Of a stretch of DNA of 64,000 nt, positions 30,833 to 35,284 are shown in pieces. The position numbers were made by a program, and so were the translations under genes. The stretch comes from a virus, in the IMG/VR virus record IMGVR_UViG_3300037467_001462, positions 1 through 64,000 of that record, one strand, 5' to 3'. Position 1 is the stretch's first letter. Every line of letters begins with the position of its first letter. The notes under the pieces were generated by a model. That model was given only the letters and a program-made list of their open reading frames with translations, did not search any database and was not told where the DNA came from.

Positions 30833-31025
30833 GGCTTCCATGTCGCCTCGCCGGACTGTGTTCGGCGAGGTTCGGGGAGGCTCGCCTCCCCGCACAAATG
30901 AATAGCCCCGGCGGGGCCGCCGCTCCACAAACGGTCGTCCCGCCGGGGTCTATTCGCAGACTGCCGGTCAAATCGTGACCGGTATCCACGGCGGCAGTCG
31001 CCGCCCCACCCCTAGGAGATCCGAA

Positions 31026-31253
31026 ATGCATTTCGCCCCCAATGCTGGCGAGTTGCGTACCACCGTCGCTTTCCGGAAGGCGACCGCATCAAATCCGAGC
31101 GGCAACTGTGTGGAGGTCGCCGAACTCGCTGACGGCACCGTCGCGATCCGCCACTCCAGCAACCCGAGCGGGGCGGCGTTGATCTACACCCCCGGCGAGT
31201 GGGATGCGTTCGAGGCTGGCGTGAAGGCGGGGGAGTTCAGCCGCCAAGGGTGA
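31026..31253 (+). CDS. DUF397 domain protein
   Basis: FRKATAS...GNCVEVA...VAIRHS..P...L.YT..EW.AF..GVK.GEF. Confidence 0.9.
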   Translation: MHFAPNAGELRTTVAFRKATASNPSGNCVEVAELADGTVAIRHSSNPSGAALIYTPGEWDAFEAGVKAGEFSRQG

Positions 31254-31270
31254 CCGGCGCGAGCGGTTCA

Positions 31271-31310
31271 GGGGCCTCCGGAGCCTATTCCGGAGGCCCC
31301 ACTTTTTTTT
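31271..31310 (+). terminator. Rho-independent terminator
   Basis: GGGGCCTCCGGA/TCCGGAGGCCCC followed by T8. Confidence 0.9.
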
Positions 31311-31354
31311 GCGTGTCTCCCTCTTGGTCACCCAAGGGTGGTGTGAGCTGCTAG

Positions 31355-31385
31355 TGGTCAACGTGCGGTGTTGTGACTACACTAG
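31355..31385 (+). promoter_or_regulatory. xis-int promoter with phage operator
   Basis: TGGTCA-N17-TACACT; GTTGTG-ACTA-CACTAG at 31370-31385. Confidence 0.55.
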
Positions 31386-31413
31386 TCGATAGCTACAACA
31401 CTCAGGAGATGCT

Positions 31414-31626
31414 GTGACCAGATCGGAGCAGCCCGCGTCGGTGGAGCCGCTGTGGGATATCAATGACCTCGCTACTTTCTTGAAGCTCCCGGTAGGGACG
31501 ATTCGGACGTGGCGGAAACGCGGTTACGGGCCGCGTCCGGTGCGCGGTGCCGCGCTCGGCAACCATTTGCGGTGGCGACCGGAGACCGTCATGGCGTGGC
31601 TCGACACCGATGACGAGGCCGCCTAA
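31414..31626 (+). CDS. xis: Excisionase / recombination directionality factor (AlpA/MerR-like HTH)
   Basis: LW.I.DLA.FL..PVGTIRTWR..G.GP...LRWR...V.AWL; directly upstream of int. Confidence 0.85.
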   Translation: MTRSEQPASVEPLWDINDLATFLKLPVGTIRTWRKRGYGPRPVRGAALGNHLRWRPETVMAWLDTDDEAA

Positions 31627-31628
31627 CC

Positions 31629-32939
31629 ATGTCGCACGTACAAGACCGATGGTTCAAAGAGGAACCCGACCCGGACAAGCCCGGTAAGACCAGGAAGGTC
31701 CGCACCAAAGCCTATGGGAAAGGGATGCGGTACAAGGTCCGCTGGACTCCGGAAGGCGAGTCGGAGAAGTCGAAGCTGTTCCCCGACAAGAAGAAGGGCG
31801 AAGCCGACGCCTACAAGACATTCATCGACAATGCGATGTTGGAGCGCGCCTACGTCGACCCGAACCTCGGCAAAACCCCGTTCAAGCAGGTCGCCTACGA
31901 CTGGTTGAAGGGCACCTCAGCAGACCCGTCGTCACGTGACACGAAGAAGCGGCAGATGGACAAACACATCATCCCGCACTTCGAGAAGTCGTCGATCGCG
32001 CGTGCGGGGACGGTGCCGGCAGTGCGGGACTGGCTGGAGTGGGTGCAGCGGCGTGGTTTGGATCCTGTGTATGTGGCGCAGTTGTTCGAGCAGCTGTCGA
32101 GCATCCTGGGGATGGCGCATCGGGAGAAGTACATCTCGGAGAATCCGTGTAAGTCGGCGTCGATCACGAAGCCGCGGGCGCCGAAGAAGCGGATCGTGCC
32201 GTGGGCGAAGTCGAAGGTGGATGCAATCCATGACGCCCTGCCTGACCGGAACAAGATAATCATCCCGTTGGGGGCTGGGGTGGGTATGCGTCAGGGCGAG
32301 ATTCTTGCGGTGGATGTGGCCGAGGATGTGGATCGCGCGGATCAGACGATCCATGTGCAACGGCAGATCCGCAGGCTGGAGAACGGGGTGTTGGTTTTTT
32401 CGCTGCCGAAGCACGACCACACTCGGGTGGCTCCACTCTCGAATTGGGTGTTGAAGTCGATTGATGCCTATCAGGAGTTGTTTCCTCCTGTCCCGGTCAC
32501 GCTTCCCTGGAAGTTTGCTGGCGGGCCTTTGGTGACGTTCAACGTGCTGATGACGCGCGAGGACGGCAAGGTTTGGTATGGGGAGTTGTTCAACGCGACG
32601 GTGTGGAAGGGTGCGTTTCGGGAGTCGGGTGTTCCGCACCGGCGGCGGATCGACGGTATGCATCAGCTCCGCCATTTCTATGCGTCGACTCAGTTGGCTA
32701 ATTTGGTGTCGGTTCGGGAGCTTGCGGAGTACCTTGGGCACGCGGATGCTGCTCTGACGTTGAACACGTACGGGCATCTGATGCCTGATAGCCACTCCCG
32801 GTCTCGGGCGGCTGTGGATACGGTCTGGGGTGTGGTGTCTGATCCTGGGACGGCCTACGGACGGCCTGAGGGGTCGGAGGGGGTTGAGGGTGGTGACCTG
32901 GGCGAAGGTCATCGGATAGTGGATTTGGATGAAATGTAG
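31629..32939 (+). CDS. int: Tyrosine integrase
   Basis: GMRQGE, K (LPKH), HQLRH, LGH and TYGH catalytic motifs. Confidence 0.95.
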   Translation: MSHVQDRWFKEEPDPDKPGKTRKVRTKAYGKGMRYKVRWTPEGESEKSKLFPDKKKGEADAYKTFIDNAMLERAYVDPNLGKTPFKQVAYDWLKGTSADPSSRDTKKRQMDKHIIPHFEKSSIARAGTVPAVRDWLEWVQRRGLDPVYVAQLFEQLSSILGMAHREKYISENPCKSASITKPRAPKKRIVPWAKSKVDAIHDALPDRNKIIIPLGAGVGMRQGEILAVDVAEDVDRADQTIHVQRQIRRLENGVLVFSLPKHDHTRVAPLSNWVLKSIDAYQELFPPVPVTLPWKFAGGPLVTFNVLMTREDGKVWYGELFNATVWKGAFRESGVPHRRRIDGMHQLRHFYASTQLANLVSVRELAEYLGHADAALTLNTYGHLMPDSHSRSRAAVDTVWGVVSDPGTAYGRPEGSEGVEGGDLGEGHRIVDLDEM

Positions 32940-33165
32940 GTGGTTACCTGGGGGTTTGGGGTGGCGCGAATAGGTGTGGGGGCTTGCGACCGTTAGGGTG
33001 GTCGTCATGGCTGAGTTCATTTACCAGATGAACCACGGCCTAAAGCCCCTGGTGGCACAGCGCCACTCGAAACCCCTTCCTACATGCGGATTCTCGGTCA
33101 CCATAGGGCAGCGTTAGACACCTACAGTCAGCGCGTGACGGCCTGTAGACGGCCTGACACGGCCC
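32849..33165 (+). other. attP: core about 33007-33032 matching the 5' end of host ettA, with GACGGCCT arm-type repeats
   Basis: ATGGCTGAGTTCATTTACCAGATGAA encodes MAEFIYQM; GACGGCCT at 32849, 32860, 33137 and 33148 (11-bp period), variant at 33158. Confidence 0.75.
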
Positions 33166-33417
33166 GAGCGTGAGCAACCTGCACCTCACCAACCGTCGCA
33201 GCGGCCCGCAATCCGCAACCCGCACACACAAATCGACGACCACCAATACCGGGGAGCGAACACAATGCCGCCCAAGCAAACCGACACCGAGACACCAGCC
33301 CGCCCGCCACAAGCCACGAGAACGACCCCGAATAGCCTCCCAGGCACCAACACCGCCAACCGCGCCGAAAAGCCGCCACAAGGCCAGCGAGACCAATTCA
33401 GGAAACCGCGCCCGACC

Positions 33418-34170
33418 CTATTCGCTGTCGAATAGCCGAGCCGTCACCCATTCCGCGGCCTTCTTCACCACCGGCACCAAACCCACCGCCGCCAGCGCCA
33501 GCCCCACAGGGATCCTGAAAACCTCAGTCACAGCCACGGAATGGTTCGCCAATATCTGCGGACGCTCCACGATCGCCCACACCATCCAACCCGTCCACGC
33601 GATCCCCGCGACCCCGATCACACCGATACTCCACAACACTGTCCGCGCCTCCCACCGCCAAATCCGAGCCTGCGCGATACCGCCAGCAGCGAACAGAAGG
33701 CAGGTTCCCACCGTGAACAGCAGAACAATCGACATGTACACAAGCGACGCCGGATCATGCATCGAGAAATCATCGTCCGCGGCAACCGAACCCAGACGAC
33801 CCACCCGCGACGCTACGACCATCCCTACCAGGCAGGCGCCGGAGAACCACGACCATGCCCGCGAAAACCACGTCCAGCGTGCGGGAATCAGGCGCCGCCG
33901 GCTCGGATCCACGAACAGCATCCGAATCCACATCAAACCGATCAGCCAGGCAGTGACCACCGTCAGGCAAGTGTGGGCGACGTCGGACACGTTGTCCCCG
34001 AGGATCCCCCGTAACGCTGGGTCGACGTGTCGTTCCCCAATGCTGTTCATCGACAGAGCAAACGAAACAGCCAAGACGGCGAGGGCGATGGTGTAGTGAC
34101 GGGTCTTCCTGTCCCAGATCGACAGCCGAGCGGAAGCTACAAGTAGGAGGATGACAACGACGGCGCCCAC
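33418..34170 (-). CDS. Multi-pass membrane protein (about 7 TM)
   Basis: Hydrophobic 250-aa ORF. Confidence 0.7.
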   Translation of the reverse strand: MGAVVVILLLVASARLSIWDRKTRHYTIALAVLAVSFALSMNSIGERHVDPALRGILGDNVSDVAHTCLTVVTAWLIGLMWIRMLFVDPSRRRLIPARWTWFSRAWSWFSGACLVGMVVASRVGRLGSVAADDDFSMHDPASLVYMSIVLLFTVGTCLLFAAGGIAQARIWRWEARTVLWSIGVIGVAGIAWTGWMVWAIVERPQILANHSVAVTEVFRIPVGLALAAVGLVPVVKKAAEWVTARLFDSE

Positions 34171-34258
34171 ATCCCCACGTTATGCCCCGAATCCGACACG
34201 AAACACAAAGTTCGCCGAAACGATCCCTATCGGTCTGATGTTTCCTAGGGTAACGAGA

Positions 34259-34561
34259 TCAGGTAAATCCCAGCGAATCTCGGATCTCGTCCTCCGGGGT
34301 GCGGTCCCAGCCAGTCCAACGCTCCTCAGCGTTCTTCTGCAACTGCCAGCCCGGCGTGCCGATAGCGCGACCGAGCCGAGCGAGCGTTTCCGGCGTCAGG
34401 CGTGTCTCACCGCTTTCCAGCCGCTTATAGCTGGACCTGGTCATACCCAGTGCGATCCACACATCTTCCTGCCTCAACCCGGCCGCGACTCGGCACTCGG
34501 CGATCACCCTGCCGAGCACCTGATCGAGGTCGTCGGTCCGTATGGCCCGCCGCCGCTCCAC
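34259..34561 (-). CDS. XRE-family HTH regulator
   Basis: R..AGLRQEDV..ALGMTRSSYKRLESG. Confidence 0.8.
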   Translation of the reverse strand: MERRRAIRTDDLDQVLGRVIAECRVAAGLRQEDVWIALGMTRSSYKRLESGETRLTPETLARLGRAIGTPGWQLQKNAEERWTGWDRTPEDEIRDSLGFT

Positions 34562-34837
34562 CGCACCACCCTAACCGGTCTGCGTCGGAACTCGCCGCCA
34601 ATACCCGCCCTGCCAACGTCGCAAACATCACGATTGTGATTCATGGCAAATTTGTGGCGACAAGCTATTGTAAGGTCCAGAATCTGGGCTGTAGAGTACG
34701 TGACAGCCTCAGTTTAGAGGAAGAGTTTACGGCTTAATCACGAGCAGCCAACGTCCCACTGTCGGGGAGGGTGAGGCGAGACGTGAACGCCCCACACACC
34801 ATCCACGTCAATGAGCCTTTGCTCGGAGGGCCACCCA

Positions 34838-35284
34838 ATGAAGCGCGACCTCTACCGCCAATACCAATGCGCACGCATCGACGACACCGAACTCGCCGAC
34901 CTCGCCAAACTCGGCATCAGCACGCGCCCACCGAGCGGCACCCTCTGCTACTGGCCGGACGAAAACCGCCAGCTCTGGAAAGAGATCGGCCACGTCATCG
35001 TGTGGGACGAAGCCGAACGCCGCATCGAAATCCTCCCCTACGAGGGTGTCGACGACGAAGACCGCGCCGCACTCGCCGGCGCCGGATGGGAAGCCTGGTT
35101 CAACGGCCCCGAGATCGACGACCAGTGGGAGTACCGGGCCGCGACCGCGGGCGGCACCTACTGGGCTACCACCATCAACACCAAGGTTGGTGCGGATGAT
35201 CCGTTCGCGATGATCATCCGTGCTGCGGAGAACTTCCGTGAGCGTCAGGATCGGTTGCTGGATCAAGGATTCGACGCAGCCTGA
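34838..35284 (+). CDS. Hypothetical protein (stand-alone transcription unit)
   Basis: GGAGG RBS; own terminator. Confidence 0.65.
   Translation: MKRDLYRQYQCARIDDTELADLAKLGISTRPPSGTLCYWPDENRQLWKEIGHVIVWDEAERRIEILPYEGVDDEDRAALAGAGWEAWFNGPEIDDQWEYRAATAGGTYWATTINTKVGADDPFAMIIRAAENFRERQDRLLDQGFDAA

Follow-up and report, generated by a model that had tools for sequence, protein, structure and literature searches.

Positions 32849 to 33165 of the window, by which we mean the whole 64,000-nucleotide stretch analyzed here, very probably constitute the attP of a temperate Nocardia phage that has the start of the host gene ettA as its attB and keeps that gene expressed with a -10 box of its own. Both the attB assignment and the replacement -10 box are well supported, and the phage almost certainly inserts at the very start of ettA and keeps the gene running. 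The observations behind this reading are sequence identities with the host gene, the geometry of the site, integrated relatives in which both attL and attR are present, and a core that co-varies with the host. The phage, a temperate phage of Nocardia, is complete: its virus record, of which the window is the first 64 kb, comprises 90,754 bp and has direct terminal repeats (DTR). A megablast search of positions 31000 to 35000 against 50,697 phage records gave no match, and integrase relatives in known phages were at most 27% identical, so no described phage has this site.

The common core of the attP is the 26-mer at positions 33007 to 33032 (+ strand), which equals the first 26 nt of Nocardia ettA, that is, codons 1 to 8 and two thirds of the next. 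Across 596 Gb of bacterial and archaeal genomes it had 39 exact matches in 38 genomes, all of them Nocardia, against a chance expectation of ~0.0003 matches by our own arithmetic. In all but one of the 39, these 26 nt begin a gene that goes on to encode the EttA N terminus, and the remaining match is an attL junction in Nocardia gamkensis, described below. One matched gene scored 925.4 bits (cut-off, 599) against the EttA equivalog NF008775 over residues 1 to 557. The flanks of the phage core have no resemblance to host DNA, apart from the promoter box. The original prediction, that the attP targets the 5' end of ettA, is thereby supported, both by the exact match at Nocardia ettA starts and by the related elements integrated there. 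Its reading of the local layout was also correct: the int stop ends at 32939, positions 32940 to 33006 lie between, and the ATG of the MAEFIYQM frame follows at 33007, 67 bp past the stop. A tRNA-type attP was considered and rejected, as the only tRNA gene is 31 kb away; the site is a protein-gene attB rather than a tRNA site, as had been proposed.

Within the core, two inverted repeats of 5 bp each (33016 to 33020 and 33028 to 33032) enclose 7 bp (33021 to 33027), which we regard as the putative overlap, with cleavage and crossover positions deduced from this symmetry. The core had also been reported to be flanked by paired arm repeats, and such pairs are present. The arm 8-mer GACGGCCT occurs 9 times in the 64 kb, compared with 4.0 expected, and four of the copies, all on the + strand, form two pairs with 11-bp phasing, at 32849/32860 and 33137/33148, or approximately -158 and +130 from the core start. 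The first pair makes up the P-arm (32849 to 32867, + strand) and lies within the 3' coding end of int. The P'-arm (33137 to 33165, + strand) holds the second pair and a degenerate fifth copy at 33158, and both arms are conserved in relatives. A further copy, with one mismatch, abuts the core on the P' side (33034 to 33041) and is not kept in relatives.

Between int and the promoter box lies a phage-specific spacer (32940 to 32991, + strand), which has no similarity to any host upstream region and would take the place of the host -35 region after integration. The fold of the int-core spacer was not significant (z = -0.05), and no terminator-like site was found between int and the core, in agreement with the earlier statement that none is obvious downstream of xis-int. 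A phage operator in the spacer was also considered and rejected, because shared 10- to 11-mers were at chance level, with the exception of one promoter look-alike.

The integrase gene (31629 to 32939, + strand) encodes a tyrosine integrase of 436 aa and is the only recombinase gene of the phage; searches of the whole 90.7-kb record gave neither a second integrase nor a serine recombinase. The product matches PF00589 with 35.1 bits (cut-off, 27.1) and PHROG 1 at 2.5e-36, and 17 relatives share its R, H-x-x-R, H, and Y columns without change. All of the nearest relatives come from Actinobacteria, and those closest in sequence (81% identical) bear the species names N. elegans and N. africana. Immediately upstream is an xis-like gene (31414 to 31626, + strand), whose 70-aa product has an excisionase-type HTH (Pfam HTH_17, 30.1 bits; cut-off, 27) and falls in PHROG 66, "excisionase and transcriptional regulator." Farther upstream, at 31271 to 31300, a strong terminator-like hairpin of 13 pairs with a T run after it separates xis-int from the DUF397 gene at 30975 to 31253.

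A locus search with a single protein returned distant integrases only, and an alignment-based search was needed. Nocardia integrase relatives below ~50% identity adjoin neither ettA nor a tRNA gene. Integrases from viral contigs that are 35% identical (L123 to L125) have tandem arm-type-like 8-mers in the int 3' coding end, followed by other downstream sequence. Having the P-arm within the 3' end of int seems characteristic of the integrase clade, and integrases at 35% identity seem to have targets other than the ettA start.

Two relatives integrated at ettA have resolved junctions on both sides. In N. gamkensis NBRC 108242, the core is present twice and the genome has a single ettA gene. At attL, the native upstream region is followed by the core and then by foreign DNA, and at attR, a homologue of the xis-like gene (49% identical) and an int (55 to 56% identical) are followed by the core and the only ettA. 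Arm-site pairs identical to those of the phage are found at attR, at the alignment position of the phage pair, and at attL, at +129 from the core start versus +130 in the phage. The 24 nt that precede ettA at attR equal the native ettA upstream sequence of other Nocardia species and not that of N. gamkensis, whose own ettA upstream region is now at attL. Since the box region at attR matches other species, the promoter in front of ettA has visibly been exchanged, and the foreign-type 24 nt are a footprint of an element that has moved between species. This element encodes RepSA.

The second case is a Nocardia genome (G449) in which an int (52 to 53% identical) lies 74 nt upstream of ettA and a second copy of the genome's own ettA-start variant is found 11,983 bp away, with an attL pair that is the same as the phage arm sites. 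The 12-kb element in between (within G449:C1:5664800-5680400) is bounded by a 44-bp direct repeat that includes the -10 box and reaches 18 nt upstream of the core. It codes for the integrase, RepSA, an FtsK-like transfer protein, a GntR regulator, and DUF2637. Both the N. gamkensis and the G449 elements are small pSAM2-type (RepSA) conjugative elements and not phages. The G449 element is the same size as an MMC-inducible island, "12.DUF756|ettA," of a 2026 preprint.

A third relative is a 94,472-bp IMG/VR prophage contig (G534) that resembles this phage, with a tail protein 69% and an int 50% identical. It stops just past a -10 box, a 6-nt gap, and the initial 5 nt of the ettA start, and a contig break of this kind is expected where assembly meets a duplicated core. 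We saw no integrated copy of this exact phage; the resolved attL and attR sites come from relatives with 52 to 56% identical integrases. The use of one attB in common by phages and conjugative elements of the same integrase clade seems to be new.

A sibling phage (G003; 91,377 bp, DTR, int 65% identical) has the same layout, with int, ~70 nt, a -10 hexamer, 7 nt, and 26 nt of an ettA start. Its core differs at two positions, so that codon 7 encodes Thr instead of Gln, and of 401 genomes sampled from the same GTDB family, 24 have exactly this variant at the start of ettA. In viral contigs, exact and degenerate patterns of the Q-type core gave nothing, and the T-type pattern gave this sibling only. 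The core of the G449 element is a third variant, equal to the ettA of its own host. Both G003 differences lie inside positions 33021 to 33027, and those of the G449 variant fall in or beside them; this is the variation that would be expected if these 7 bp are the overlap in which attP and attB must match. The arm-type sites of G003 are at the same positions with another sequence, and the pair co-varies, as expected for co-evolution with a diverged integrase.

The predicted replacement promoter, delimited by comparison with the hosts, occupies positions 32992 to 33006 (+ strand) and consists of a G-N-TAGGGT extended -10 element followed by a 7-nt discriminator. The TAGGGT hexamer (32994 to 32999) lies exactly 7 nt upstream of the ATG, just where it had been reported. 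All 38 Nocardia ettA loci have a conserved block that ends in TAGGCT 6 to 8 nt before the ATG, with no Shine-Dalgarno sequence. The four Nocardia upstream classes all have a conserved -35-like block 19 nt upstream of the host -10; the phage lacks this block. Hosts of the Thr-type variant have the same box at 6 to 7 nt.

We infer from comparative data that Nocardia ettA mRNA is leaderless. In an unbiased sample of 40 genomes of the family, ettA orthologues fell into two clean classes, one with an ATG start, TANNNT 6 to 7 nt upstream, and no Shine-Dalgarno sequence (11 sampled family loci), and the other with a GTG or TTG start, a Shine-Dalgarno sequence, and a leader. The only experimental transcription start site that we found, that of the M. 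tuberculosis orthologue Rv2477c, lies 37 nt upstream of the gene (supplement of PMC4633059) and fits the leadered class. We considered this site as evidence against a leaderless ettA and set it aside, as Mycobacterium-type orthologues form that separate, leadered class.

This phage, G003, G534, and both integrated elements (5/5) have a TANNNT hexamer 6 to 7 nt before the ATG, and the discriminators and everything further upstream differ among the five. That the hexamer is kept while its surroundings diverge argues for selection on the box. When the phage box and its flank are compared with the host box, 11 of 18 positions are alike. The claim that integration swaps the host ettA promoter for a phage one is therefore right in part: the phage does bring a -10 at the host's distance, but this is a near copy and not an unrelated promoter. 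What is really exchanged would be everything upstream of the box, including the host -35-like block. The phage -10 box would act as a promoter for ettA. Elsewhere in the window, an HTH regulator gene (34259 to 34561, - strand; 100 aa, GTG start at 34561) lies downstream of a sequence nearly identical to the attP promoter look-alike (15 of 16 nt, one indel). This sequence (within 34259 to 34580, - strand) has the same hexamer, 6 nt before the GTG. It is possible that the phage uses one of its own leaderless promoter types before the ettA copy.

On the other side of the core, the ettA start runs into the P' arm as an ORF of 36 aa (33007 to 33117, + strand) that begins MAEFIYQM. The original prediction was that the host promoter would fire into this peptide. 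The ORF exists, but the peptide is not conserved, the equivalent ORF being 9 aa long in G003 and 12 aa long in both integrated elements (N. gamkensis and G449); it is probably a by-product. A block just past the core (33040 to 33075) is kept in G003 and partly in both integrated elements. Its G003 counterpart (L047, 175 to 240, - strand) forms a strong hairpin (z = -3.0) with a T-loop-like motif. This block may serve to terminate transcription from the host promoter at attL or to bind a protein, or it may be a relic.

Further to the right is a convergent gene of unassigned function (33418 to 34170, - strand), whose 250-aa product is possibly a membrane protein. It has the codon-position GC pattern of a real gene, a weak Pfam hit, and no PHROG hit, and a + strand ORF that overlaps it was rejected as a gene because the same pattern favors the - strand. 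GC skew passes from approximately +0.2 to +0.34 to approximately -0.25 to -0.35 at ~33000. The flip in strand composition noted earlier at the attP is thus real, and it reflects the convergence of int (+ strand) with the genes at 33418 to 34170 and 34259 to 34561 (- strand).

Taken together, these features suggest the following mechanism. Int would bind the arm-type 8-mers on both arms and the two 5-bp inverted repeats of the core, with the Xis-like protein taking part in excision. Strand exchange would occur within the 7 bp between the core repeats, which would pair with the identical ettA codons 5 to 7. Because the host -10 box lies only 6 to 8 nt before the ATG of an apparently leaderless gene, integration would cut ettA off from its whole promoter, and the phage -10 at 7 nt, together with the 26-nt copy, would compensate for this. 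One junction would then read int, phage box, core, and the rest of ettA, with the coding sequence unchanged and the gene still expressed. The other would read host promoter, core, and P' arm, giving a short, nonconserved ORF antisense to the convergent phage gene. In M. tuberculosis, ettA is essential, and its partial loss of function activates whiB7 (PMC9159947). Given this essentiality, the built-in box is the likely price of using the site.

Other explanations have to be weighed against this one. It could be argued that the ettA fragment is no recombination site at all, but host DNA picked up by imprecise excision, or a decoy gene that mimics the EttA N terminus. The fragment does form an intact ORF with its own promoter-like box. 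However, it ends after 26 nt, neither flank is host DNA, the arm-type repeats are symmetric around it, the peptide past residue 9 varies in length and sequence among relatives, and real attL/attR pairs exist in those relatives, so that we consider this explanation hardly credible. A less radical alternative accepts the attP and attB and takes the -10 look-alike to be decaying homology, with ettA in the lysogen expressed by read-through from xis-int or by some other phage promoter. The lack of a terminator-like site between int and the core suits such a scheme, as does the G449 repeat, whose extension 18 nt upstream is identical to the host, just as plain homology would be. But five diverged elements keep TANNNT 6 to 7 nt from the ATG despite diverged surroundings, and a read-through mRNA would lack a clear ribosome-binding site before that ATG. 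We therefore regard leftover homology as improbable, and a box retained for its function as the better account.

A different question is whether integration serves to regulate ettA adaptively. Here, the loss of the -35-like block and the placement of ettA behind xis-int would change the EttA level and, with it, translation and stress physiology. In favor of this, partial loss of ettA activates whiB7 in M. tuberculosis (PMC9159947). The phage does lack the conserved host block 19 nt upstream of the -10, and int has no terminator after it. However, a close copy of the host -10 points to preservation and not to change, and mycobacterial-type promoters, as is generally known, often function without a recognizable -35. 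Adaptive regulation therefore seems unlikely to us, if less so than leftover homology. We are similarly doubtful about the wider idea that an integrase clade of large temperate phages and small conjugative elements has specialized on positions +1 to +26 of a leaderless, probably essential ettA, with the upstream exchange altering EttA levels and so tuning host translation and stress responses. The reading that we prefer is the more conservative one, in which the phage box preserves ettA expression.

If the assignment is correct, Nocardia gains a new, well-defined attB that is highly conserved and lies outside tRNA genes. Because few genetic tools are available for Nocardia, this attB, the integrase, and the arm sites could serve as an integration-vector system, and the core variants found in nature give an indication of how host specificity is set by the 7-bp overlap. 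The site also illustrates how a mobile element can settle at the 5' end of a gene that is probably essential; where the gene is leaderless, ~15 nt of predicted promoter would be enough to rebuild expression. In M. tuberculosis, responses to stress and drugs change when EttA function is reduced (PMC9159947), and any change of ettA expression in carriers, if true, would matter physiologically.

In the literature, we found no actinobacterial attachment site assigned to ettA, only the bare name of the island "12.DUF756|ettA" in the 2026 preprint. The architecture of the attP itself is of the ordinary arm type (lambda/L5 type). Like the classical actinobacterial sites of L5 and the pSAM2-type AICEs (general knowledge and PMC2440964), it combines an integrase and an Xis with a core shared with attB and repeats on two arms, and pSAM2-type elements use the same integrase clade and the same attB. 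Unlike the classical L5 and pSAM2-type elements, which integrate in the 3' ends of tRNA genes, this phage has its predicted attB in the 5' end of a protein gene.

Such a location has precedents. In Proteobacteria, the dusA-associated integrases direct prophages and genomic islands to the 5' end of dusA (Farrugia et al. 2015, PMC4482086). As here, a tyrosine integrase targets a single site in the 5' portion of a conserved protein-coding gene and the element supplies a replacement 5' sequence, with putative -10 and -35 boxes after integration in the dusA case. The replaced N terminus differs there, whereas the EttA protein would be rebuilt unchanged. A further difference is that the target gene here is apparently leaderless, and its replacement promoter comprises no more than a -10 box placed 7 nt upstream of the ATG. 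We take the likeness to be a functional analogy only. In Streptococcus pyogenes, the phage-like SpyCI islands (Scott et al. 2012, PMC3430984) likewise integrate at the 5' end of a housekeeping gene, mutL, and a promoter borne by the element can drive the downstream host gene. SpyCI, however, normally silences mutL while integrated and restores it by excising, and the rescuing promoter is cryptic and lies in a decayed int gene, whereas the promoter box described here is a built-in, conserved part of the attP. The principle is thus already known from the dusA-associated integrases and from SpyCI at mutL, and what appears new is ettA as the target and the leaderless form that the arrangement takes.
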